Positions 43,599 through 61,797 of a stretch of DNA of 64,000 bases are shown here, piece by piece. Origin of the DNA: Botryllus schlosseri (Eukaryota); contig CM119371.1 of the NCBI GenBank assembly GCA_051294905.1, positions 994,001 through 1,058,000 on the forward strand. The letters run 5' to 3'. A program made the translations under genes and the position numbers. The notes under the pieces are model-generated. The model was given only the letters and a program-made list of their open reading frames with translations. It made no database searches and had not been told where the DNA came from. Positions within the stretch are counted from its first letter, which is position 1, and every line of letters starts with the position of its first letter.

Positions 43599-44133
43599 TA
43601 CTGCGCAGTTTGTCGTAGTGGTATGGCGGAAGAGAGGGACATGGCATATTTTGCACCATTCACCCATGATTCGGCGACTTCAAAATACTGCACTATAGTT
43701 GTTCCAGACGCAAATGAATAGCTTTGCAGAGCATAGAGGCAACTAGAGTGGAACATGGCGTAACTAAAACATCATGACTTTGCACTCCCCATGCATTAGT
43801 TTTCTGAAGAAAATAGCTACGGCCGAAAAGAAATCATGATTTATCTTTAATTTGATACCACATCAGTTTTAGAGCAAAATGACCCTTCCAAACAATAATT
43901 TTTGAATATGTTTATATGACAACATATTTCAACAACTGATACTTCAGCAATCACGTGTTAAGACCATGCACACACAGTATCCGGCCGGAAATATCGTTTT
44001 ACTGGCCTTTTATGAATGTATCTATTTTTCCAATGTCGCTATAGGCTACAACTAGAGTAGCAATAATCGGCAGCTTTATCAACGTGAGAGACACGAAGAT
44101 AATTTTTGTTTGGGTCTTCATATAACGTTGAAC

Positions 44134-45029
44134 CAGTGTTGGGATCAAGTCAAGTGCTACCTTCGAGTCACGAGTCATTACACATTTTGACTCGAGTCAA
44201 GTCAAGTCAATCGATTTTCGAAGGTGACTCGAGTCAAGTCAAGTCACTCGATTTTTAGAGTTGACTCGAATCAAGTCGAGTCAAGTCAAGTCAAGTCGCA
44301 AGTCAAGTCACAATTCAAGTCAAAATGCCTTTTCGGAGTATGAGGCATGCTTATGTCTTTGCACTCTGCTAACTGTCTGAAATACAGATTAAATGGTCAT
44401 TGATTCCGAACAGATGAACGATTATAGACTGAATATACATGAAAGAAGGCGCTGTTTCATTCACATATAGCCTACGTAGAAACCCTAAACTACGTAAGCA
44501 ATTGCATAGCCTCAGTTTATAGTTACCTGTCAAAATAGATCATTGAGAAACGAATTGATAAGATGCAATACATTACCCATTTACAAATTGATATGATATG
44601 ATACAAACTCAAGACTGCGCGAATAATTCGGGACTATATGAGCTATATTCGTATTCAATTTTAAAAAATCAAGAGGTTCGGTTATGACAGCGCAAGCTTC
44701 ACTTCGGTTGTGGTCAATATATTTATGAGAGAACGATGGAGGCTCAGTAAAACGCACGATCATTGGATGATTGGCCGTTCTCACGATTTAACGTTTCGTG
44801 AACAATCCGACCATATACAAAATACTGTGATTTTTATCGACGTCTATTGCTTGATGACTTGAAATTGACTCGTGAATTTTGCTCCAAGTCACGAGTCAAT
44901 CCACATTTCTGACACGCCAAGTCAAGTCAAGTCATTTTAGCATAGTGACTCGAGTCAAGTCAAGTCAAACGAAAAAAATGACTCGAGTCTGATTCGAGTC
45001 AAGTCATGACTCGAGTCATCCCAACACTG
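44134..45029. mobile_element. GACTCGAGTC-family hAT MITE inserted in a pseudo-exon
   Basis: TIR CAGTGTTGGGAT; exact TSD CGTTGAAC; paralogous empty site at ~32183-32208. Confidence 0.93.
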
Positions 45030-47306
45030 CGTTGAACTGCATAAAATGTCGGGGCAGTTTCATGCTATCTGTAAGAAAGGGTGCCGTATAATAATTGTAA
45101 GGGATATATACAATAGACACCCAGGTTGAGATAGATGCCGACATTAATGCCAATCAATTAGAATAATTAAATATTTTCAGGCGGAGTCATGGTGGTAGCA
45201 AACATTGTTGCTACTCAAGAACAGTACCGATACCGTACTGAAATATTAACTGGGAGAGTCCAGAGATTATTCATAACATTGATGCTAATCAGTATAGTTG
45301 TCAAATTTTTCAATTTGTGGCAAAAATTTCCAAGTAGATAGAAATGAGAGGGAGAATCCGATAATAATGTCACACTTAACTGATTTCTATAGACAATGAC
45401 CCATAACACGAGCTACATTCAGGGCCGAGTATCAAAAATAATTAGGGCTAACCTCTTACTTACATGACAGAATAGACCAAACTTTATACCATACCGAAGT
45501 GAACAGGGTTTCAACGTCAAAATAGCTCAATTACAGACACAATTTCAAATCTTCCTTGAAAAAACCTTTCAATTTCACAGTTGAATGATAAATGATCATT
45601 AAAAGCTTATTTTTCATCATGCTATAACTTGGACACTATACTTATGGTATGTAGGCTATTTCATTCAAAATATATTGATATTTACTAAGATATATTCCAC
45701 TAGGTTATGAGCCAAATTTATGAAAAATATGAAACTAGATGGAATCCAAATCTATTATCATGGCACAAGCAATCCGTTACGCTGGATTGATCACAACTCA
45801 AGGTTAAACTTGATAAGACTCGCAGTATTGTTTTACATTGAGGTACATATTATCTATAGGACCGTGGTACAATGATTTGCGTACCAGTACTCGAATCTGA
45901 ATCTAGTATCATCAACTCTACTGATTCGAGTTAGCAGTGAAACATGATTTTTTTGACTAATGAAGCTTTACGCCCAGTTCCATCAAAAAATTATTAATTG
46001 CATAAATTTTCTGAAACTTTGATTGGTCGTATCGCAACATACGAAATATGTTGTACAAAGCTATGAACGTTAGCGGAAATGACATTTCTGTGTAACTGTG
46101 ATTGACTTACAACATTGTCACAAAGACAAATAAAGTATTTTCGAAAAATACCAAATCATCATTATGCGGTGAGGAGGCGGCCTTATGTTACGTAGTTGCA
46201 TGAAAAGTAGGCTACATATTCAAGCTTTTGGGTCTCCCATATACTTATATCATCATCATAAGTGATTATCAAATACTCGGCGTGAAGCCTAATACTTATT
46301 CAGAATAGAATCTCTCAGGTACCGGTAGGCTATTCGAATTTGCCCAGATGTAAGCCTAGTACATACCAGCAAATCTTTTTCCTGCATGATTTCGTCTTCA
46401 GCATCATCGTCCATCGGTAATTCCATTTCAAGTCAACAGCACAGTAACCCACTAGGTCTTAGATTTTCATGTTATTGTAGGATTACATCTGGTATCTAAC
46501 ACTGAGTGTGGAAAACATTATATTTGCAATATTCAGACACTGAAACCATTATGTGCTCACTCAACGATGAAGTTTAATTAGTTTCACATTCCCTGTTAGA
46601 GTAAAGGTCATAAAACAGCATTATGAAGTAGTGAAGAGCAGATTATGCTGTCTAATAACAGAATACAAGAAACTCTTGATACTCCAGAGAAAATTTTCAA
46701 CAATGAAATAGGGTCAGGGGTCAATATCAGTCTTAGTAGCCTACCTCTTTCAAGATCGATTATGTGTGACATAAACTTTTAAGGAACATTTTAAGCGCAA
46801 TTCTGTCCACACAATAATTGGGAAGCAACGTGTTGAACGCTGGTTGGGGAGAGAAATATGGCTAACATGTTTTGGTTAATAATATTTGATTGGTAGTCTA
46901 GCAGGCCTAGTCTCAATAAACTTCATACTTACGGTATATACTTCTGAATCCAATCTGTAATTCAATTTCAAATCAAACAAAAATTAGATAGGGTATCAAT
47001 AAAGTTTCAGATTTTGCAAATATTTGGATCAAGACATTATGAAGTATGAGTTGATATGATTGAAAAGCAATTTATTTTAACGGAATACCATTAGGCCAAC
47101 ATGAGCGTTATCAGGTTATCACATATAAAAAAAAACTTTTTCTGCTCATTTAACCTTGAAATGGAAGTTTTTCAAGCTGATGTGAAATTTTCTGTAAATG
47201 AGATACTTTTGCAATAAATAGTTGTTCTCATTGTGATGTTACATAAGTTGATTGATTTTATCATGCAAGAGTTGAGGTAATAAGTTTAGGTACTAAGCCC
47301 ATAATG

Positions 47307-49435
47307 CAGTGTTTCTCAACCCCGAGTCCGCGGACTCAAATGAGTCCGCGGAAGGTCCTTGGTGAGTCCGCGAACACAGGAATTTTCAGTAACTTAATCG
47401 GCTCGGCACACTTTTTCTTCCACTTCCGATATTATTTCGGAACATGTAATTGACAGACCTACGGGGCTCGCTCACTTTCGGACCAATGTCATTGTAGCCT
47501 TACGGAGAAAATAGCTTTTTGGTCCGAAAGTGAATGAGCCCCGGTCCGGTTTCGTCAAATTCCGATTTGAGAATTAGGCTGAGTGATTTGCAAAATACCT
47601 ATTTTGAAAGGTTAGTAACCTTTAATAGCTGTCATAAAAAATGCATAGATACCTCAAATATGTGACTGGCGGCACTCAACTTCAATAGTGCTTTCAGAAC
47701 TACATTCATTGCAGTAGAATTTATTACCTCGGTGACTTTTCGGGTTTCCCTTATCAAGAATTAACCGCACCATAAAAAGGATGAAGAGTTTGTATACAAT
47801 CTTTCAATATTCCATTAATATATTCCGCTGATTGTCTGTGTAACGTCTTCTGAGAATTGTATAATTTGATTCTCTATTATCCCTTTATTATGACTACCGG
47901 AGTACCGGTACAGCTGACTTTGGCCAGCTACCGTTCCTTTCTATCATTGCATTGTTACGTCATAATTTGCCCATTTGGATTTTGTTTGAATCTCTTTCTC
48001 TATGCTTCTTATTGTGCCGTTACCTCTTGTTGATAAGGGGCATGCATACGAAATTCCGGCAAGTTAATAAATTATACTGCAGTGAATGTAGTTTTGAAAG
48101 CAATATTAGAGATACCTCAATAAGGGATGTTTGGCCTCATATATTTCAAACGCAAGAACAACGAAACAGCACTACTACAAATTGATCAGCATTCCAAGCA
48201 TTATTCGTTCTCCTGAGATTTTCTGTGTCTTGGGCAAACCAGTTGGTTGCAAGTATCACAGGCAAAGCGGGTATGCTTTGCACATCTGTCGCATCATCCT
48301 GGTTTGATACCAATCACGCCAGGTATAAAACCCCTATTATCGCCAACTGGAATTTTTCAAAATGCCCTACATTTATGTTCGAGGTAGCCTATTGCTAAAA
48401 TTGTCATAAGCAATTCTATCACGGTCATAAACTCTACAATTTTGGTCGGATTGACTTGAATTTAGTACGAATGGACTCGGAATTCAATGCTGCGTGTTCA
48501 CTATTAACAATTCACATAGAGAATATGCCAGGTATAAACCTCTGGGACAGCTGTTTATACACACGTATGCGGGACCGTAACTGCCGTACATCAAACCGCC
48601 ATAATTGAGGGCGGACCTCGAAGGGGGGCCAAAACTATTCGTGAATTAACATAAATTATAGAGTGTTTTTTGAAAATTTATGCAACTTTTTAGAAAAATT
48701 ATATCATTATATCATATTCCGAAACGTCTCACTCAGCTCGACCGATAAATCTGAATGCATGAGCAGAGATAGCATAAAAAATTTACAGCTATATATATAT
48801 AGATGCAATCCCCGATCATGTTGACCGATTCAATCATGAATTATGGAATATTTTCGCGCCTCGCGCGGTTTATTCGAAACAAAACGACTGAATGAATGGT
48901 ACAAAAATTTCGCTGAGAAGTAGCGGTAAAAAGGTATCGGAAGGGGGGGGGGGTCTGGGGGTAAAGCCCACCAGTAGTTAGGTTTATAGCCTGTGTGGCC
49001 CAAGACCAACGTTTTGTTATTGAGGGGGGCAGACGAAGTGCTGTCACGGTCCTGCACGTAGGCACATTGCACTGGTTTCCGGCGCGATATACGCTGAGTG
49101 CTGGTAATTGATTATGGCGACTTGTTCACTTACAGACTATCTGGAAAATTACAAATCGTAGGGACATGTGCTAATCACAGAAACAATCTATAGTTGTCTA
49201 ATATAAGTGGAACTCGAGATGTTGACTGCATTACTGAATAGTTGCTTGAATTGCAAAGCCAACAGATGTGGAAAGCCAGATTTAAGAAAGCTTCCTTAAC
49301 TCAATTTTGGCTCATTTTTTTTTGTTGATACCGTATGATACCGTAAAATATTTTTCAGTAATATATAGCTTGAGTCCGCGGGTATACTGGCGAGCTTGAG
49401 ATGAGTCCGCGGGTAAAAAAGGTTGAGAACCACTG
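47307..49435. mobile_element. Non-autonomous hAT (Buster-type) with nested MITE 48570-49054
   Basis: TIR CAGTG(T/G)TTCTCAACC; exact TSD CCATAATG; GAGTCCGCGG repeats; nested element TSD CACGTATG/CACGTAGG. Confidence 0.9.
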
Positions 49436-50677
49436 CCATAATGTCTCCCACTCATATCTGTCTATATCGCAGGCCTACTTCAAAACTTTTGTGAAGGGTT
49501 TCACATGAATTCTGTTACGACATGGAATATATACTTGAGTACCATAAGTTAGATGTCAAAATTCTGTAACTAGAATATGGAGCATAATTTTCAGCTAAAT
49601 CACCACATTTTTATAATCTGAAATATTCCCTGTAGTCACAAGTTCGTTAGTAAATATTACCTAAAAACTCATTTCCTAAAGATTCTATGCTACAGCAGTA
49701 TACAACACTATTTACCAAAAAATTCAAGTAAACAGAAATGATAGGGAGAGTTATGAATTATTTTTACACGCAGCGATTTCCATGGGCTTCACCTTCAGCT
49801 ACATTCTTGGCAGGGCACCAAAGATGAATATTTTCTCACTGGCTTGCTGAATTCACCAATTTATACAACATGACAACATTCTCAGGTATAATTAGCTCAT
49901 TTATAGAGACACAAGTTCAGATCTGCATAAAAACAGCACTTGGATTTCACGGTTAAATGTGCAGAAAGCTTGTTTTCATCACGCGATAACTTGAAAACTT
50001 CATTCAAAATGGATACCGGTAGCTATCTACTCAGCTATAGCATTTTACAAGGTGATGAGTCAAATTTCAGCAAAATCTGCAACTTGATGGAGACCGAATT
50101 TCTCTTTGGTTCATTTCACATAGAATTATCTATATACAGCAGTCACAAACAATCCAGTAAACTGGCTTGATCATGGCTTAAGGTTGAACTTAATCAGACT
50201 TGCAGCATCATTTTAATTCAGTAATTTCATTCTCAAGTGAGGCAGGAACGAACGATCGATACTCCATGGAAACTCGCAAATCATGTTTGATAGAAGCTGT
50301 AAGCCAATATGTTATCGGTGTCTCGTACGGACTAAAGACTCTACTGAATACACACAGGTGTGAAGCAAGACGCTGAGAACCGTCTTGGCACACCAAACAT
50401 ATTACTCTAAACGTATCAGGATTCCATTTTCGGGCATAAACACTACTTCCTTGGCGAGAGCGATTTTTAGAGTCCGGGGTTACCGGTATTGACTATCAAG
50501 CCATGTTACCATTTCAAATGATTTCACATCACACCAAACCTTTCGTAACAGACAGATGCAGCCAGAGGCCATCACAATTTCGAGTTGGTAACCTCTACTC
50601 CTATCGATATACGAAGACTGTACTGTTGTATGTGAGCATAGTAGAAGCGATTAAATAGTATATTCATATTGAAATGA

Positions 50678-50711
50678 ACCCGAATATTTTCGGCTGACAC
50701 TCGTCAGGGGT
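50678..50711 (-). ncRNA. Minimal type I hammerhead ribozyme (left-arm copy)
   Basis: Reverse complement of 53573-53606. Confidence 0.8.
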
Positions 50712-50812
50712 AATCGTCAGCAACTAGTAGAGAATTGGAAAGAACATTGTATATCAACAATCGTATCACAAAATATGACGTCACCAGCATGAAATTTCGA
50801 ATGAGAGAGCGT

Positions 50813-52129
50813 TCAATGTACTATTTTTAGGTGATACACGAACTCCTTTTGTTGACAGAGTTTTGGTTGGTGTATTTTGATAAAAGTTGATTCCAAGGCA
50901 CACAAATGGAATTGTGAACGGCCTCGACCTACGATTCGAAATCGGTCGTCTCGATAATTATTCGCACAAATCGGATTATCCAACAGATGTTTGCCGATGG
51001 CAGAATTAATTGCCTTTGATCGATCAGCATCAATCTTAAGTGGATGAGTTAAGGGTGAGCTTTTCACATCGCGTGACGCACGTGTTCTGATAAATCTGGG
51101 GACATGTTGGTTAATGCGGTCCTGCAGACGTCTTGACGTTCTTCCCACGTAGCCACAATCACAGTGGCACCTATATTCGTACACTACATTACTTTGTTGA
51201 AGTGCAGGAAGCACGTCTTTGCGTGTTGAAGGGAGCAGTTGTGTTGTTGTAAAAATCACATTGGTTTTGACTGTATCGTAACATTTACCGACAGCAGAAA
51301 TCAATTGTTTTTCAAAGCGGGTGGAAATGGGGCCAATCCAAGGTAGATGGATATAAACATCTTTTATTGTTCGTGCGGTGGGCTCTGTTCGTTTTTCTGC
51401 GTTGAATTGCGTTAATTTCCTCTCCATGCCGCGGCTGATGACGTGTTCAGGGTAACCGTTATCAAGTAAGATTTTTCGGATGTAGTCAAGTTCTAAACTC
51501 AGTTTGTTACCCGAACATATCATCAACGCTCTATGCACGAGTGTGCCTATGAGGTTAATTTTTCTGCGCCGAGGACTAAATGAATTCCAGCGAAGGTATT
51601 GGCCTGTGAATGTCGGTTTTCTGAAAACAGACGTTTCAAATTTGTTGGTATTGCGCTTTTCAACTAATACGTCCAGAAATGATAATGAGTTATTGCGTTC
51701 TTTTTCTATTGTGAATTGCAAGGCCGGGTGAAGCGAGTTTAAGCGAATGAGAAATTGGTCACACTCCGATTCATTCCTGAAAATGACAAATGTATCATCT
51801 ACGTATCGGCGGTACAATAGTGGTTTGGCGGACTCACGCTGGGACAGAAGCTCGACCTCGTAATACCCTACGAAAATGTTGGCCGAAATAGGTCCCAGGG
51901 GACTTCCCATGGCTAAGCCGTCTATTTGGCGAAACATGACCTCGTTAAAGCTAAATTCCACGCAGCAAGTTGCCGCTTGTAAAAGTTCAACAAAGACGTT
52001 ACGCGGGATTGATGGTGGCGGTAACTTACCACCGTACAGCGCGTTGGCACAAATATCAATAGTCTCATGCAGCGGAACGTTCGTAAAAAGACTAGAGATA
52101 TCAAATGAGCTCAGAAACACGTCTGGATT
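50813..52129 (-). CDS. 5'-truncated PLE reverse transcriptase + GIY-YIG endonuclease (left arm)
   Basis: Mirror of the + copy; differs by ISANIF vs ILANIF. Confidence 0.9.
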   Translation of the reverse strand, partial: NPDVFLSSFDISSLFTNVPLHETIDICANALYGGKLPPPSIPRNVFVELLQAATCCVEFSFNEVMFRQIDGLAMGSPLGPISANIFVGYYEVELLSQRESAKPLLYRRYVDDTFVIFRNESECDQFLIRLNSLHPALQFTIEKERNNSLSFLDVLVEKRNTNKFETSVFRKPTFTGQYLRWNSFSPRRRKINLIGTLVHRALMICSGNKLSLELDYIRKILLDNGYPEHVISRGMERKLTQFNAEKRTEPTARTIKDVYIHLPWIGPISTRFEKQLISAVGKCYDTVKTNVIFTTTQLLPSTRKDVLPALQQSNVVYEYRCHCDCGYVGRTSRRLQDRINQHVPRFIRTRASRDVKSSPLTHPLKIDADRSKAINSAIGKHLLDNPICANNYRDDRFRIVGRGRSQFHLCALESTFIKIHQPKLCQQKEFVYHLKIVH

Positions 52130-52154
52130 TGCCTGGATTTGCCTGGATTTGCCG

Positions 52155-53471
52155 AATCCAGACGTGTTTCTGAGCTCATTTGATATCTCTAGTCTTTTTA
52201 CGAACGTTCCGCTGCATGAGACTATTGATATTTGTGCCAACGCGCTGTACGGTGGTAAGTTACCGCCACCATCAATCCCGCGTAACGTCTTTGTTGAACT
52301 TTTACAAGCGGCAACTTGCTGCGTGGAATTTAGCTTTAACGAGGTCATGTTTCGCCAAATAGACGGCTTAGCCATGGGAAGTCCCCTGGGACCTATTTTG
52401 GCCAACATTTTCGTAGGGTATTACGAGGTCGAGCTTCTGTCCCAGCGTGAGTCCGCCAAACCACTATTGTACCGCCGATACGTAGATGATACATTTGTCA
52501 TTTTCAGGAATGAATCGGAGTGTGACCAATTTCTCATTCGCTTAAACTCGCTTCACCCGGCCTTGCAATTCACAATAGAAAAAGAACGCAATAACTCATT
52601 ATCATTTCTGGACGTATTAGTTGAAAAGCGCAATACCAACAAATTTGAAACGTCTGTTTTCAGAAAACCGACATTCACAGGCCAATACCTTCGCTGGAAT
52701 TCATTTAGTCCTCGGCGCAGAAAAATTAACCTCATAGGCACACTCGTGCATAGAGCGTTGATGATATGTTCGGGTAACAAACTGAGTTTAGAACTTGACT
52801 ACATCCGAAAAATCTTACTTGATAACGGTTACCCTGAACACGTCATCAGCCGCGGCATGGAGAGGAAATTAACGCAATTCAACGCAGAAAAACGAACAGA
52901 GCCCACCGCACGAACAATAAAAGATGTTTATATCCATCTACCTTGGATTGGCCCCATTTCCACCCGCTTTGAAAAACAATTGATTTCTGCTGTCGGTAAA
53001 TGTTACGATACAGTCAAAACCAATGTGATTTTTACAACAACACAACTGCTCCCTTCAACACGCAAAGACGTGCTTCCTGCACTTCAACAAAGTAATGTAG
53101 TGTACGAATATAGGTGCCACTGTGATTGTGGCTACGTGGGAAGAACGTCAAGACGTCTGCAGGACCGCATTAACCAACATGTCCCCAGATTTATCAGAAC
53201 ACGTGCGTCACGCGATGTGAAAAGCTCACCCTTAACTCATCCACTTAAGATTGATGCTGATCGATCAAAGGCAATTAATTCTGCCATCGGCAAACATCTG
53301 TTGGATAATCCGATTTGTGCGAATAATTATCGAGACGACCGATTTCGAATCGTAGGTCGAGGCCGTTCACAATTCCATTTGTGTGCCTTGGAATCAACTT
53401 TTATCAAAATACACCAACCAAAACTCTGTCAACAAAAGGAGTTCGTGTATCACCTAAAAATAGTACATTGA
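52155..53471 (+). CDS. 5'-truncated PLE reverse transcriptase + GIY-YIG endonuclease (right arm), probably Penelope/Poseidon type
   Basis: RT motifs SFDISSLFTNVP, GLAMGSPLGP, RYVDDTF, FLDV, thumb FRKPTFTGQYL; endonuclease NVVYEYRCHCDCGYVGRT..RL..R..QH...SAIGKH...LE; no Cys-rich linker between RT and endonuclease. Confidence 0.93.
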   Translation, partial: NPDVFLSSFDISSLFTNVPLHETIDICANALYGGKLPPPSIPRNVFVELLQAATCCVEFSFNEVMFRQIDGLAMGSPLGPILANIFVGYYEVELLSQRESAKPLLYRRYVDDTFVIFRNESECDQFLIRLNSLHPALQFTIEKERNNSLSFLDVLVEKRNTNKFETSVFRKPTFTGQYLRWNSFSPRRRKINLIGTLVHRALMICSGNKLSLELDYIRKILLDNGYPEHVISRGMERKLTQFNAEKRTEPTARTIKDVYIHLPWIGPISTRFEKQLISAVGKCYDTVKTNVIFTTTQLLPSTRKDVLPALQQSNVVYEYRCHCDCGYVGRTSRRLQDRINQHVPRFIRTRASRDVKSSPLTHPLKIDADRSKAINSAIGKHLLDNPICANNYRDDRFRIVGRGRSQFHLCALESTFIKIHQPKLCQQKEFVYHLKIVH

Positions 53472-53572
53472 ACGCTCTCTCATTCGAAATTTCATGCTGG
53501 TGACGTCATATTTTGTGATACGATTGTTGATATACAATGTTCTTTCCAATTCTCTACTAGTTGCTGACGATT

Positions 53573-53606
53573 ACCCCTGACGAGTGTCAGCCGAAAATAT
53601 TCGGGT
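53573..53606 (+). ncRNA. Minimal type I hammerhead ribozyme in the PLE 3' UTR
   Basis: ACCC-CUGACGA-G UGUCAGC C-GAA AAUAUU C-GGGU: complete core, stem I ACCC/GGGU, 1-bp stem II, palindromic stem III; predicted cleavage after C53602. Confidence 0.82.
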
Positions 53607-56600
53607 TCATTTCAATATGAATATACTATTTAATTGTATATTGAAGTTCTGTACCTCCAAGAAGCTCTTCAAATAGTAGAAGCGCGAAACGGTATGCCAA
53701 TAAAGCACTGGTCTACAACCAATCAACGCTTTACCCAGTAATATAAGTGAATCAGCCTGTACTCTGAAACATATTAGCTATATCTCCAACGTCCGATCGA
53801 ATTAAAACTGATATTAGTACACTCAATCAGCTGATTTCATTCCATGTTTTGACGGAGAGCCATTCATGCACGTGAGACATTAGCTCCACCACGCGGAAGA
53901 ACGAAAGGCGTTAAATCGATAACATCATGCAGTTCGATATTGCATTTCCTTCATAACCTATTTGGTTTCGTCATCTCTCCTAATTTTATTCTCCTGTACA
54001 TGTCGTTATCATCGGATAAGGCGATAAAGCGCACACTCGAATAGGGTACGTATTATAAGCATTTAAAAGAACTATACTGCTGGAAAAGTTAGGAGCCATC
54101 GATGCATGACGTCCTTGGAAGCCAAGGAGACCGCTTGCCTAGTAACCACTGTATATATCGTTTTGCATTTGCCCTAAGCCAGGGATGGGCATTGGGCAAC
54201 TTGTCCGGTCAGTGAGCCGCATATGGGAAAATTAGGCACTTGGCGGGCCAGATTACAGAATATATACAATTATATATTATACCTTAATCGCGTATTTATC
54301 CACCGCTACAAGGAATCAATTGTGTTTAATACCAGCTATCCGACAGTCGTCGAGCATGTCCGCATTCAAGTCGAAATCAAGCAATTTCTCCTAAATCAAT
54401 ACTAGCCAGTCTTCGGGATTACCGAACCACGACCTAACATCGACCTCGCCCTTCGCCACATGCCACCTCATTTTGTCGCTTGCGTCTTATATTCTCTGCA
54501 TTACTTTTCAGTCAGTATGTCCATTCCTCTTATTTACTTCGCCTATAGGCTAAGGTTTGTGTCTGATCTTAATGGCTGCTTCAAGTTGTTTCGACACCTT
54601 CCTATCTTCGCATTGTATCGCAGTCTTGTGATGTTTTGAAACGATGAAAATATTAATAAACCTGATTGATTGATGTAAACTTCAAGTTTAAAGCATAGAA
54701 ATCAAAAAGAGTATTTCATGAATTTATTTACAACAGCTACTGAAGTCAATTAGGCATCTATGGTCAGTGACCATTGGTCACTCAATACTAGATTTTTGTA
54801 CTCTGATTGCATGTCATATGCAAATACCCTTAGTGAAGACTGCTAATGTTCGTGGCAGTGTTGGGATTTAGTCACTGCCTTCGAATCACAAGTCATCTCG
54901 AATCATTGCACATTTTGACTCGAGTCAAGTCAAGTCACTCGATTTTTGGAGGTGACCCGAGTCAAGTCAAGTCAAGTCACGAGTCATTCAAGTTGAAATT
55001 TCAAAGTAATAGATATGATTCAAATTCATTACTAGGGCGATTTTTTTTGACACTTCAAAAAAAGTTAAAATTTTTTTCACATAATGAGTTTGATTTATTT
55101 AGCTGTTCTTGTGTAAATCACACTAGCATGTAACTTAGTTACTCCCGCCATTTACCGGCTTCAAAAATCTAGCGTTTTTCGGCTATAACTCGTTTTGTGT
55201 TCACAATAGGGAAAACTTACTTCTTAAGACTGATAGAAACATGATGTTTTGGCAGCTTTCATGACCCCATGACTAGTGGTTGTCGAGATGGGCAATTTCA
55301 CCCCCTCTCGCACAGACATTGGGTAATACCGGCTGGAAAATGGAGGCAGTCCCCTAAAACCAATTTTTATTGAAGTTTCAATTCATTTTTCGGGACTTGA
55401 AAACCCCCTTTTAGGATTTGAAAAAAGTCATTTTCACTCCACCCTACAACGCATGCCTATTAACATTCCAACATTTAACGACAAATGACGATACATATTC
55501 TCACATCTTCACCAAGTCTACCTACCTCTCATTCGAATTAAGTTCTGATACTCGAAACAATTGTCTGGCATATATCCAGATTGCTATACAATCTTTTATC
55601 AAATTGTTCGCGTTAAATAAACCAAAGAAAATGCAAGGCTCAAATAACTGATTAATATTTATTTCAAATCGATTCTATACATTTCATAACAAGAAAACGC
55701 AGCCCAATACAACATAAAATCACGGAAATTTCAGCCACTACTTTCTAAGTCTAAGATGCAGATACTGATTAGCAGTCATTAACAATACTCTTGAGTTATA
55801 ATGAGTTGCGGATAATGTCAGTATAATTGCAAATTAGTCACAATGGACGGTAAGCGTAATTTATAGAATGTCAAGTAGCAAATCATAATATCTCAGTAAA
55901 AAGGGAACATTGAATCACATCCATAAGATTATCTGAAATCTCGATTGTTATGGATTAACAATTTGCCTCTTTTTCTGTTAACTATGGCGTAGATAGTCAT
56001 TTAGAATCAATTTTTCACATATCAATAATAAACGAGGTCATCAAGAGAAATGAGCCAATTATATTATGCTCGAAGCATTTAGAATCACCAAGGTAGCAGA
56101 AAACTTGGTCATTGGTCATAAAAGCCAGAAAAATCGTTGGCTCGAAGTATACAGCGACAGTCATTCTACAGAATAATATCAAGGCCTTGAAATATTTTGG
56201 TAATAAAAGTTTTAAACTCGGTAAGTATACCTTTCAACATACTCCAGAAGTCAACTGTACTAAAGATATAGAGAAAGATCACTAGATCATGATGGAACAT
56301 GGAGAATCCTACATAATTGACATTACAATGGATTTCATATACTACACTACATTCATTTTCGACAAAATTTTTAATTTTATATTTTTTGGGTTTTGTGAAG
56401 TATTTAATTTCTATCATAATCCATCACACAAAACGTAAAGACAGTACACTGTACACACTGCACATCTAAGAATATGTCACTTTTTTTTATTTTTCCATAT
56501 TTATGATTTTTATGTAATTTTTATTATGATCAATTATTTTATAGGTGTAGTACGATGGTATATATTTATTTTATCCCGCGAGTCGATCCCAACTTGCGAG

Positions 56601-59479
56601 TAAATCCTCATAATAGCAAATAATTCAACAGGATGACGGCTTGAACTCTACTGTAGTCAAACGACCTTCGCATTCAAATCCATTCAACCAGTAATTTGTG
56701 CCGTAAAACATTCCTCTTCGGAAATATGTAGGTTTGACGTGACATTTATGACATTACTTACCATCATTTTCGTCGATTTGTGAAGCTTTATGCAACTGTT
56801 TTGGTTACTTAACTGTAAAATGCATATTAGAAATAGTTTCGTGAAATTGCATCGATTGAACATGTAATAGTCAGTTTGAATTCTAAAACGAATAGCAGTA
56901 ATTCTGCTCTGCACGTCTCAATTTTGTTGATGACGATTGGCTCTTGTACACGAGTAACAATGTTGCATCTACTGCCATCTTTTCTCCCACTCCCTGAAAA
57001 ACAAATACCTCTTAATAAATCACTATCCCAGTTAATCAATTACGTCAGCAAACTATCCGGACTATGAGCAGAAAATTAACTGCACGCACGGGTATGTCAT
57101 AACAATGCACAAAATAGAATTCGACTTGCTGTAGCGTACCTGGGATCAGAGTTGGGTGAATCATAGTGATTGAATCTAAAGGACGATTCGGCATTTAAAT
57201 TTTCGCGAGGCGATTCTCACGTATCGCCGGCACACAATCCAATATACGATAACATATTTAGTCAGTACACGAATTTCATGAAAATAAACCTGCAGACAAC
57301 ACACCGTATCGCAGGAGCGGTATTGGCTGGGACGGTGTACTTGCTAGAGGACTTTGTTAACAGTTAACATTTCGATTACGGAAATTGCAGTGCAGTTAAC
57401 AATATCGAGTATCAATGACACTCGAAAAGTAGTTATCGGCTTGTTTTATGGAAAGCCTAAAATATTGGTGACGATAAGCGTACTTCTGTCCGAATTGGAT
57501 AATTAGATAATTCTAGTTGTCTAATTAGACTAATTAGAGCAAATGCCGGTAATGTAACTTGAATCTATTTTGTGAAGTGATTCTCTGCACTAATTCTAAT
57601 ATAATTGGTAAATAATTTATATTTTCTCATTTTAATTCAAACCCTGTCTCTGGTTTTCCTGTAAATGCTACTGAGAGAATTGTGTAGTGCGAAACGAGCC
57701 AAGCTTGTTGGACAGACATTTGCTATTATCATGCTGATTTGATAGTAACGGAACTGGATTCAATGACCTAGTTTTTTGCGGACTCGGTAATTCTGATCCC
57801 AATCTAATTTGGAAAAATGTATAGCAATAACTACAGTCTTAATCTATTTTGAAAAAAGTAACGCGACAATTATAATTCTACCATAAGTTGGAAATAACTG
57901 TGTAGCCTCAATTCTAATTCTACTGTATGTTGAAAGAAAATTTAACTACAATTATTATACTAATCAATTTTGCAAAAGCAGGAAATCTTCTAGATGACCG
58001 AATCTGACTTGAAATAATCTGAAATCTTGTCGATCTGCAGCACAACTATTAAGCACATTCAAGACGAAGTTTACGAAAAATTTGTAAGTTGTCACTTGCG
58101 ATTACCTAAGAAAAGTATTCGACAACCAGTCCCAGTAATAATATTTGAAATGCACATACTCCAGTACTTTTCAAACTTTCATTTACACGATTGCTACATG
58201 CAGCCGAGTAAAAACTGAACGGGATCACTCCAACTTCTGTTCGAGTTTAACCAATGACTATTTCGATAGTTTCTTTAAAAATTATGCGACAACATATTAC
58301 AACCAATAACTATATTTATTTCACCCCAAGCAGCTAAATAATCCGGACGCAATATTTCTCGACCTACACTGTATTGATATTTAAATTCTTCGAGGATCTC
58401 ATCAAATCTCAGTTTCATAATGCAACAAATATTTCCCTCAATAAAATGAAATCTTGTGTGGTCTGAATGCAGCAAGTAATCATGAATTGAATGAAGTGAC
58501 GCATTACTGCCGAAGATCAACTTTAGTATATATTGACAGAGGTGGTCAGTAACCAACTAACTCCACTTTTTTAAAGTATAAAAGTACGTTTTGCCCACTT
58601 ACACTACTTACTTAAGTAGTTAATAATAGTTCAGACTACTTCTACTTCTATTCGACAACTTTCATTTTTTCAGCAAAACTAGGAGTGATGTGAAAAGTAT
58701 GTTGCGACTCGATGTGAAATGATGCATGACAGCGCTATTATATTCTTGCAGAATAAACGAAGTCTTTTTTCCACAAAGCTACGTGTGATGCATCGCGTGT
58801 CAATGTTATATGATGTCACTATCCGATATCATATCAGTTAATATTGTATATTAATTTATATATTAAACAGTTTGCGTCACAATATTTCTAAGCTGTTGTT
58901 TGAAACCAGATTTGCATGTGAATGGATGGACGATGTAATGGAAGAATAAATCTCAACTCTCATTTTGGAACGGTCAGACTTCGTAACATCTACTCACCAC
59001 TTATAAAATTCGTAGTCGAGTCGCGTCCAGGCATCCCTTTCTCGGATCACTGAAATAGGAAATAAGTTATATAGCTTAAAATGCTTGTTAGCAAAAGATG
59101 TATGCATCCTATGAATTGTGCTCTGTTGCTGAGCCTATTGCGTAATATCTGAAACAGTCATCAGGCTCAAATAGAGTTCAAATCATCAAAAATATAAATG
59201 AATGTTATCCTACGATACACGGTGGTTTAGTTATGGTAAGTAAGCGTACGGAACTTAAGCTTATCTACAATTTTAAATACGAATCCTATTCCTGATGATA
59301 CATTCAAATCCAAGTACAAATCCATATTTTAATTTTGTTCCGCGTCCATATCCACGTTCTATTCGGTAATGGCTGAAACTTGATCAAAAAGTCGCATGAA
59401 AATGAAAGCTACATGAAATTCTATGTCAAAGTACGGATGAAAATCAATCTTCGAATGAATCAGAAACCATTATCTAAAG

Positions 59480-59875
59480 CAGTGGTTCGCAACGTGAGCG
59501 ATATCGCCCGACAGGGGGCCATTTGGCGGTCTAGGGGGGCGAAAATGACGAAGGGGGCGATAGCGGGGCGAAAATGCACAAAGGGGGCGATAGGGGGCGG
59601 AAATAGCGAAGTGGGCGATAGGGGTCGATGTCGCGTTAAAACGGCTATTTTGGAATCAAGTCGGAGAAATGAACTTTTATTTAGTCAACCCACGAAAATT
59701 TAGCTGAAAAAGTGTAAAACTTCGATGTCAAGCTGAAAAGTTGCCCGTTTTTGGGTTCTACTCGCCGGTGATTACAGTTTGTATGCCCATTTTTCGGTTC
59801 ACAAAATTTGGTGGGCGATGATCGGTGTGGTGCTTGAAAATGGGGCGTTGAGTTGGAAAAGGTTGGGAACCACTG
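59480..59875. mobile_element. hAT MITE (family of 3066-3374)
   Basis: TIR CAGTGGTTC(G/C)CAAC; TSD ATCTAAAG/ATCTGAAG. Confidence 0.88.
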
Positions 59876-61797
59876 ATCTGAAGCCAGACAAAAGAGATGA
59901 CACGTGACCTCAATACCATAGAGATGCATAAAGTGGAGTCGTAAAACCGTGAAATTACTTGTTATAGTTTCCGTTCAAAAGCGGTGGCTTTCAAAGGGAC
60001 CATTGCTGCGGCCAAAATGTTTTTCACACTCTCCACTTTCATTTCAGACAATGTTATATTTAGAGCGCAGTGTCGTTTTAATGTGTTATAGTTATGTCAG
60101 TGGGCAATGAAATGAGAAATCACACACAATATGATGCCCCTACAGTACAATGCATATTACATATATCTAATCCAATTAGATATGGGAATGAGTGAAAGTA
60201 ACTCTAATCCATTTGTGAAACATTCCCTGTAATATGCAGCTAATTATTTACGTATTGTCAACCGATTCAAATAACCAAATTTATATTCGATTTATATTCG
60301 CACCGGTTCCACATTCTGTGAGATACTCTGAACTCGCATATTCGTTTTCGTATCAAAGGTAAATCGAACAAAGTAATCCCGAATGCTATTTTAAGAATTA
60401 TAGTACTTGATTAGGTTGGACAAAATGATTTCAAAATTATTGCAATGTTGTTGAATATAATTCAGTTCTACCTAAAAGAATGCACAATGAACATGAATGA
60501 TGAAAGCATTCCTATCAACGCCAATATAAAAAGTGGGATGCTGTATGACATAAAACCACGAATCCTACAGAGAGGAGGTCAATAACGAAGTAACTCTACT
60601 TTATCAGACTGCTCAAGTAGTGCTGTCTACTTACATCGCTTAATCAAGGGGTTGTCATTTTAGACTACTTCTGTTTCTACTTCTTGTCACAGTTTTTAGT
60701 CAAAACTACTTACGTCATACAATATTGATTTTGAAAAGTATCAAGTTGTTCCTAGCTGCGTATTCGTCATCGTTTTCAGTGAAATTCTTATGGGAGGCGC
60801 CTTAAATAGCCCATGTATCACGGTGACTGCATGAAGATATTTTAAAAGATTCCACTCACTTGCAGTGTCATTAGTCATTTTGCATTAGCAGCGTAGATAT
60901 ATCTTGGAATTTCGAAAGTAGATATCTCCTATTAACTGCTGAAAGTATGCGGCCCTTCGACCAAATCTACTTTTTGAAACTATTTATTTCACTACATTTC
61001 AGACTAATACATTTTCTACTTCCACCTCAAGTCAATTTGAGATTTCTTGGAAATTGCTACTTCTACTTGTATATCAGCAGCAGCTTACGGCGCTATTTAT
61101 AGTTCTACATGAGTCTTTACTCTGGCTACTTTGACTACCTCCAATCATTCACGAACTCGTGTTAGCAACTCTCAGAACCGATCATAGTCCGCTTGGTCAC
61201 CAGATGTCGTAAATAAGCTGCATGAAGTATTACATTTGTTCCAAAGTTATATAAGTATATGAAAGTGGTTTACAAGTTTCTTTTACTTATCGTCCCCTTA
61301 TCAAGCTCGATATATCTTTATCACGCCCCATAATGGTAGAAGTACTATCAGCAGCGAAGTAGTTGTGCTTTTCTGTAGTACTTATTATTATATACTTGTT
61401 TCGCTTACTCAAGTAGTTTTGTTCGTATACTACCTCTACGTCAACAATTTTTATATGGTGAATACTAATTTTTGCATAGTTGACATTGTCAAGTAAAAGT
61501 AGATTTTGACGCACTTTAACGATGCCTTGCTTCGAAATTGATATGCAAGCTCACAATCAGCAACGTGTGAGAGATAATGCCTGAATAAACTACAACAATT
61601 AATTCGTATTAAGAATGGGATATCGAATGAAACTAAAATTCATGAATACCGTGCGTTATCACATAACCCTGATAACGACACTATGTCATGAATGAAACTG
61701 AAGCCCCATGATTTCTAGCGTTAGTACCAAATTGGACCTGAATTGACCATTTCATTCAAAGTGATCGCGCTTATTTAATATACCTAATAAAACGGAT

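Follow-up and report, generated by a model that had tools for sequence, protein, structure and literature searches.

Here, we propose that a near-palindromic insertion of a Penelope-like element (PLE) in the genome of Botryllus schlosseri probably arose from two target-primed cDNAs, begun at start sites 38 nt apart on the element and joined to one another by a template jump, a reading to which we give a probability of roughly 60%. The insertion is 3023 bp long and occupies positions 50650-53672 of the 64,000-nucleotide stretch that was analysed (NCBI GenBank assembly GCA_051294905.1, contig CM119371.1, positions 994,001 to 1,058,000 of the forward strand; hereafter the window, whose own numbering is used unless an assembly location or a unit position is given). 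The element is a 5'-truncated PLE encoding a reverse transcriptase (RT) and a GIY-YIG-like endonuclease. The proposal draws on the anatomy of the window copy, on the single target-site duplication (TSD) that encloses it, and on a survey of 29 head-to-head insertions of the same family, the window copy among them.

The inserted DNA consists of two arms of the element facing each other head to head. Measured on a ruler provided by one natural tandem unit of the family, the left arm (50650-52129, minus strand), a 5'-truncated and untailed copy whose outer end adjoins the TSD, covers unit positions 1175-2654, and the right arm covers 1162-2692, being made up of a body (52142-53634, plus strand; unit positions 1162-2654) and a 38-nt tail (53635-53672, plus strand; unit positions 2655-2692) that is present on this arm only. 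The inverted repeat proper (50650-52129 against 52155-53634) comprises 1480 nt per arm with a single mismatch, 51885 G on the left against 52399 T on the right; the change is specific to the left arm, the right arm agreeing with 44 of 44 other arms. The tail sequence occurs once in the window (0 of 100 shuffles matched it), and in tandem copies it is merely the next stretch of the unit. Thus, the two 1480-bp arms with one mismatch and the 38-nt extension on the right arm, all part of the original prediction, are confirmed, and its further claim that the arms are truncated at exactly the same base is corrected, since the tailed arm is 13 nt longer and starts at 52142.

The 3023 bp entered as one piece. 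They are enclosed by a 12-bp TSD, ATAGTAGAAGCG, with its left copy at 50638-50649 and its right copy at 53673-53684 (both plus strand), and neither arm has a TSD of its own. This word is found exactly twice in the 64 kb (shuffle mean of 0.01 matches, with none of 100 shuffles giving two). The flanks belong to a host repeat with at least 30 copies on the same contig (74-98% identity), and the alignments with its paralogs halt exactly at 50649 and resume at 53673. At seven distinct paralogous places on that contig, which are paralogous empty sites and not an empty allele, the flanks adjoin each other across a single 12-mer (exact in 6/7, with one mismatch in 1/7). Because the flanks at these sites are joined over one 12-mer, the insertion is the product of one integration event that duplicated 12 bp, which agrees with the single integration that had been foreseen.

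Either the insertion is very recent, as had also been predicted, or its arms have been held alike by conversion: besides the single difference in 1480 nt between them, the left arm is 99.73% and the right arm 99.80% identical to the ruler copy. A change at 52429 is common to both arms and, of 41 scored genomic matches, absent from the other 39, and a second common change recurs at only 4 other places. The arms therefore come from the same template lineage, although this common template does not separate an arm copied back from the other arm from two cDNAs made on one RNA.

The junction between the arms is a 25-nt spacer (52130-52154). The original prediction had placed the truncation just before RT motif A and left the spacer unmentioned; the first part stands, in that the arm frames begin seven residues before this motif. 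Comparison with other copies identifies 52142-52154 as native element sequence with no counterpart in the left arm, from which it follows that the tailed arm really begins at 52142. The remaining 12 nt (52130-52141, unstranded) are a filler that is absent from the native unit and is a stutter copy of the adjacent 10-mer TGCCTGGATT, of which the junction carries two stutter copies. In keeping with these boundaries, contigs of runs X2, X19 and X17 depart from the window sequence at 52142 and run on as native upstream sequence. The junction sits on a small native hairpin (52143-52161, plus strand) with a 7-bp stem, CTGGATT and AATCCAG, around the 5-nt loop TGCCG; the junction strand was folded computationally, and the natural tandem unit carries an identical hairpin sequence immediately upstream of the arm. 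The join would have used the 7-nt complementarity of this hairpin, slipping twice by 10 nt. A 16-nt word spanning the junction occurs nowhere else in the assembly (one forward match and no reverse match in 495 Mb), so the hairpin is no repeatedly used identical junction.

Around the hairpin, arm 5' ends cluster at unit positions 1128-1209 (window 52142-52190 and its mirror), where 9 of the 58 arm ends in head-to-head pairs fall against an expectation of about 1.8 (82 of 2692 nt). A solo copy (L059) starts at unit position 1169 and includes 16 nt of 1155-1170 in inverted orientation. This region may be a pause or break site beside the native hairpin.

The family to which the window copy belongs was sought in the 495-Mb assembly (219 contigs). 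Among the 40 candidates scored of 2915, the arm as query found at least 51 matches at 99-100% identity, and among the 40 scored of 1448, the last 300 nt of the arm found 41 matches, all at 100%. Tandem arrays in the family give a unit of 2692 bp. In run X1, short contigs are about 60 times deeper at the 3' end of the arm than at the junction, which fits heavy 5' truncation over many copies. One tandem array (G000:C16:20950284-20960757, comprising L002, L003, L005 and L025) has at least four units of 2692 bp with an inverted internal fragment (unit positions 1325-2196) in front, and ends at the untailed position 2653.

Of the 29 head-to-head insertions surveyed, 23 were found with a query containing the tail and 6 with a tail-free query. 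Both outer ends are fully visible in 22 pairs, and in 20 of these one end falls at 2650-2660 and the other at 2683-2692, so that the tail boundary of the window copy recurs in these pairs, in line with the constant boundary that the original prediction had anticipated. The other two combine a tailed end with an end shortened at its 3' side (2594 and 2625). Pairs with two tails, or with none, number 0 of the 22 fully visible insertions, and each of the six pairs from the tail-free query has exactly one tailed end. Of the TSDs of these pairs, 13 are 12 bp long and seven are 13 bp, with one of 14 bp and one of 9 bp. Within a pair, the arms share most of their departures from other copies (in L052, 16 of 16, with zero differences from arm to arm).

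The inner ends are far less regular than the outer ones. The 5' ends of the two arms of a pair are usually unequal, with offsets of 8, 10, 13, 13, 16, 16, 18, 24, 44, 55, 60, 95, 97 and 137 nt, and up to 1796 nt. The offset exceeds 24 nt in 21 of the 29 pairs (44-1796 nt), contrary to the equal-length arms that had been predicted for the family, and is 24 nt or less in the remaining 8, which we call near-symmetric. Such pairs are in excess: there were 5 among the first 23, against a mean of 0.73 under shuffled pairing (39 of 100000 shuffles reached 5), and with the window copy left out there were 4 among 22 (236 of 100000 shuffles). Overall, the tail sits on the longer arm in 9 pairs and on the shorter arm in 11. 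Two opposed 61-nt matches lying 80 nt apart elsewhere in the assembly (G000:C6:28106001-28106202) could represent one more near-symmetric head-to-head insertion.

No junction is shared between any two of the 29 pairs. The junctions show either an overlap of 0-4 nt or a filler of 1-24 nt, and several fillers are stutter repeats of neighbouring sequence. As in the window copy, the fillers at the L053, L055, L046 and L065 junctions repeat adjacent bases. That of L019, 24 nt long, is similar to a different part of the element, which suggests more than one jump.

How might an insertion with these properties be made? In the two-cDNA mechanism that we favour, the nuclease of the element would nick both target strands 12 bp apart, and each target 3' end would serve as primer for reverse transcription from one of two start sites that lie 38 nt apart on the element. 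With different start sites in use, one cDNA is tailed and the other untailed. In the window copy, both minus-strand cDNAs would then have stopped within 13 nt of one another, at about unit positions 1162-1175, and one of them would have jumped onto the 3' end of the other through the 7-nt complementarity of the hairpin, slipping twice and copying the other cDNA back out to the flank. The sharp placement of both outer ends in all pairs speaks for specific initiation at both of them. In addition, where the longer arm of a near-symmetric pair has no tail, the tailed arm cannot be its copy.

The alternative that deserves most attention is self-primed copy-back, in which one cDNA would run from the tail to about unit position 1162, fold on the 7-bp hairpin, stutter, and copy itself into the second arm. 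This is in essence what the original prediction had concluded, namely that the entire cDNA was copied back. The geometry of the window copy permits it: the junction falls exactly on the native hairpin, the tailed arm is the longer, as copy-back needs it to be, and the arms are nearly identical and have in common a change that is missing from every other scored copy. Near-symmetric insertions are moreover enriched in the family, and palindromes at inverted junctions have led to self-priming being proposed for Penelope (PMC3846280). Against it, a cDNA copying itself should reach the end of its template, tail and flank included, so that a halt would be needed at 2654, 38 nt short, and 2654 is where the untailed end lies in 19 other insertions. 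The family is also at odds with copy-back in that the arms differ by 44-1796 nt in 21 of the 29 pairs and, above all, in that in five of the eight near-symmetric pairs the longer arm is untailed (L051, L064 and L068) or end-shortened (L029 and L069) and its partner is tailed, an outcome that copy-back cannot produce. L058 looks alike, with one end beyond the fetched DNA, and only the window copy and L011 are near-symmetric with the tailed arm longer. Copy-back thus remains a geometrical option for this one copy; as its actual origin we consider it unlikely, though far from negligible.

Several observations weigh against two target-primed cDNAs. As noted, the window copy belongs to the minority of near-symmetric pairs that copy-back could make, its longer arm being the tailed one and its junction a ready-made hairpin, and the change at 52429, taken alone, fits a little more readily with one arm having been copied from the other. 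A query that contains the tail retrieved the first 23 pairs, leaving six later pairs as the sample unbiased on tails. The strict rule of one start site each is unexplained by the biochemistry, since in vitro the use of the two start sites did not differ between strands (PMC11167929). Finally, no intermediate has been observed, and the contigs assembled from the runs are short, none of them spanning the structure.

Building on the two-cDNA mechanism, it is conceivable that a dimer bound to one RNA primes both nicked strands 38 nt apart, and hence always leaves one tailed and one untailed end; the near-palindromes, with their offsets of 8-24 nt, would then be cases in which the trailing enzyme caught up with a stalled leader and jumped onto its cDNA. 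We put this forward tentatively, as an attractive idea on which the odds are somewhat unfavourable. If it were true, this very young, high-copy family would be a natural data set that would settle the long-undefined mechanism of Penelope integration and would read out the spacing of the two enzymes.

The lack of contigs across the structure or either of its junctions also bears on whether the palindrome is real, as a fold-back or chimeric read could have created a false one within a genuine, simple 5'-truncated insertion, and structures of this kind are described as troublesome for assemblies (PMC8557442). An artefact of this sort would not be expected to give a left outer end that adjoins the TSD at the canonical untailed position, a one-base difference between the arms or a stutter at the junction, and the same build recurs at 28 other loci, on 12 other contigs and this one, each with its own TSD and its own junction. 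We regard an assembly artefact as highly improbable. As a separate observation on the sequence runs, at least half of the sampled window words also occur in runs labelled as other coded organisms and in seawater, hot-spring and urban metagenomes, and run X17, labelled as another coded organism, covers part of the host flank at 99%. These occurrences may reflect one species under different labels, DNA from the environment, or a spread of the element.

A last group of explanations would have the palindrome arise after integration, by inverted duplication or by two independent insertions, or before it, by retro-copying of a transcript from an older palindrome. Replication fold-back can indeed yield palindromes, and transcription reading through a head-to-head copy would supply a palindromic template. 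We dropped the later inverted duplication and the two independent insertions on account of the single TSD around everything, with none for either arm, and of the two outer ends, which both lie at the canonical end positions of the family. Retro-copying was likewise dropped, as the unique junction word means that the assembly holds no source palindrome and as no two of the 29 pairs have the same junction. Taken together, there is very little chance that any of these accounts is correct.

Much of what is seen in the window copy has precedents. For PLEs generally, strong 5' truncation, an inverted 5'-truncated copy adjacent in head-to-head orientation, and a tail of 30-40 bp, often at one end only, have been described, and the transposition cycle has been called undefined (Craig et al. 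2021, PMC8557442). In the element Pen2a_Av of Adineta vaga, the same architecture comes with a 31-bp tail and a 9-bp TSD, and palindromes at inverted junctions were thought best read as self-priming (Arkhipova et al. 2013, PMC3846280). The structure of the window copy, its one-sided tail and the idea of self-priming are thus already in print, and the head-to-head form is typical of the PLE class, just as the original prediction had said of inverted copies and one-sided tails.

Compared with canonical endonuclease-positive (EN+) PLEs, the family appears to have the same layout, an RT with a putative GIY-YIG-type nuclease C-terminal to it and cysteines lying between the GIY and YIG halves (PMC8557442). 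It also has the same strong truncation and head-to-head inverted copy (PMC8557442, PMC3846280), a one-end tail (38 nt here, 31 nt in Pen2a_Av) and, enclosing the entire insertion, a TSD whose length varies (12 bp here, 9 bp in Pen2a_Av; PMC3846280). In both, the start of the open reading frame (ORF) lies inside the terminal repeat, and this family also makes tandem arrays (PMC8557442, PMC3846280). Unlike canonical EN+ PLEs, the window copy has no direct pseudo-long-terminal-repeat (pseudo-LTR) part, just two truncated halves, and its unit has no hammerhead ribozyme recognised by Rfam.

The closest biochemical parallel is a 2024 study in vitro, in which a purified PLE protein, predicted to be a dimer, nicked and extended both target strands, and reverse transcription started at two neighbouring internal sites separated by the length of the tail (PMC11167929). 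Our genomic copies point to the same two features, both-strand nicking and extension and two start sites spaced by the tail, that were seen with this Anolis Poseidon protein (PAc). The start sites lie within the beginning of the ORF in each case, 18 and 56 nt after the ATG here and 111-118 nt in PAc; PAc showed no strand preference for either site in vitro, whereas the genomic pairs always have one of each (PMC11167929). Head-to-head copies are not treated in that paper, where 'inverted' refers only to a blocking nucleotide, and a bioRxiv preprint (10.64898/2026.07.22.740005) yielded no passages on inverted copies or tails. Within the literature searched, which lay outside subscription journals, we found no paper that traces inverted Penelope copies to two-strand priming.

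Twin priming of human L1, from work by Ostertag and Kazazian in 2001, is said to produce 5' inversions. There too, the second nicked strand reportedly also primes and the cDNAs are joined by microhomology; L1 twin priming is said to use an internal site of one RNA, resulting in inversion without duplication, whereas the arms seen here both begin at the element's 3' end, giving a mirror-image duplication. Self-priming of second-strand synthesis by reverse transcriptases through hairpins is a classical observation from cDNA cloning. The window copy resembles it in that a cDNA 3' end on a short inverted repeat gives a palindrome with a small loop, but hairpin self-priming predicts a copy of everything in the first strand, the tail included, which the family data contradict.

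Both arms have an open frame running from the junction to a TGA stop, in the left arm over 50813-52129 (minus strand; RT from motif A, then the GIY-YIG-like endonuclease) and in the right arm over 52155-53471 (plus strand, 438 aa; RT motif A at 52176-52199, YVDD at 52479-52490, and GIY and YIG with intervening cysteines at 53097-53147). Motif A reads SFDISSLF. Pfam RVT_1 matches the arm ORF with an E value of 2.3e-08 and the 860-aa frame of a natural tandem copy with 7.8e-09. The Pfam GIY-YIG match is at E 0.026 and 15.2 bits, under the 22.6 cut-off, and direct reading of the frame gives VVYEY..C.C.C..YVGRT..INQH at 53097-53180. Protein Atlas returned animal clusters with RVT_1 and HTH_animal and a neighbouring cluster with GIY-YIG on 27% of its members, which we take as a lead only. 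A natural family copy has the DKG motif (KPDKGSG) in its full-length frame, in a part lying outside the truncated arms of the window. Thus, the Penelope-like identity originally assigned is borne out by RVT_1, YVDD and motif A, together with the DKG motif and the tandem organisation of the family. The window copy itself, judging from its sequence, is a near-palindrome of two inactive half-elements. For it to yield dsRNA and siRNAs, as the original prediction suggested it might, an antisense promoter or transcription from beyond the insertion would be required.

For classification of PLEs, the criteria of Craig et al. (PMC8557442) are a GIY-YIG with a CCHH motif and two cysteines between GIY and YIG, and a DKG motif upstream of the core RT, with the Penelope/Poseidon clade having no CX2-5CxxC linker before the endonuclease. 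By direct reading, the roughly 60 residues before the GIY motif contain a single cysteine, so no such linker is present, and we tentatively place the family in the Penelope/Poseidon clade.

The unit carries one stop-to-stop frame of 860 aa, whose first ATG and first six codons (53617-53634, plus strand) stand at the 3' end of the unit; a complete ORF consequently needs a tandem arrangement. This ATG is 18 nt before the untailed end, and the tail corresponds to ORF nucleotides 19-56. A hammerhead motif in the pseudo-LTR is typical of the clades with a C-terminal endonuclease (Penelope/Poseidon, Neptune and Nematis) and absent in Naiad/Chlamys. Rfam gave no hammerhead match at E up to 1 on the arms and the full tandem unit, and relaxing the threshold to E 10 on 53480-53700 gave none either, a result to be read with the proviso that the models may miss minimal forms. 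The sole Rfam matches were chance microRNA-like ones on the central hairpin and weak snoRNA-like ones. Just upstream of the ORF ATG, at 53566-53606 (mirrored at 50678-50718), two CUGACGA boxes and a GAAA recall a hammerhead core that has no proper stem II.

The window copy is therefore a known architecture in a new and very active family, and it is the family that makes it useful: hundreds to thousands of nearly identical, fresh copies, in a contiguous assembly and with clean TSDs. The sample drawn from it displays a strict rule of one tailed and one untailed end, together with the excess of near-symmetric insertions. Such genomic scars constrain the mechanism of integration, and they fit the both-strand priming at two start sites demonstrated in vitro in 2024. 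The main interest thus lies in the family as a data set for the unsettled mechanism of Penelope integration.

The surroundings of the insertion are themselves repetitive. The host repeat is several kilobases long and extends over window positions 46626-55680, its copies being spread over the first 4 Mb of the contig (about 0.13-3.8 Mb), mostly in the same orientation. Apart from the element, there are no ORFs of at least 110 aa at window positions 44000-60000. To the left of the PLE, a segment of 2129 bp (47307-49435) has no counterpart in the paralogous host repeats. It is flanked on both sides by an 8-bp direct repeat, CCATAATG, and has imperfect terminal inverted repeats starting with CAGTG and no long ORF; from these sequence features it looks like an insertion of a non-autonomous hAT-type DNA transposon.

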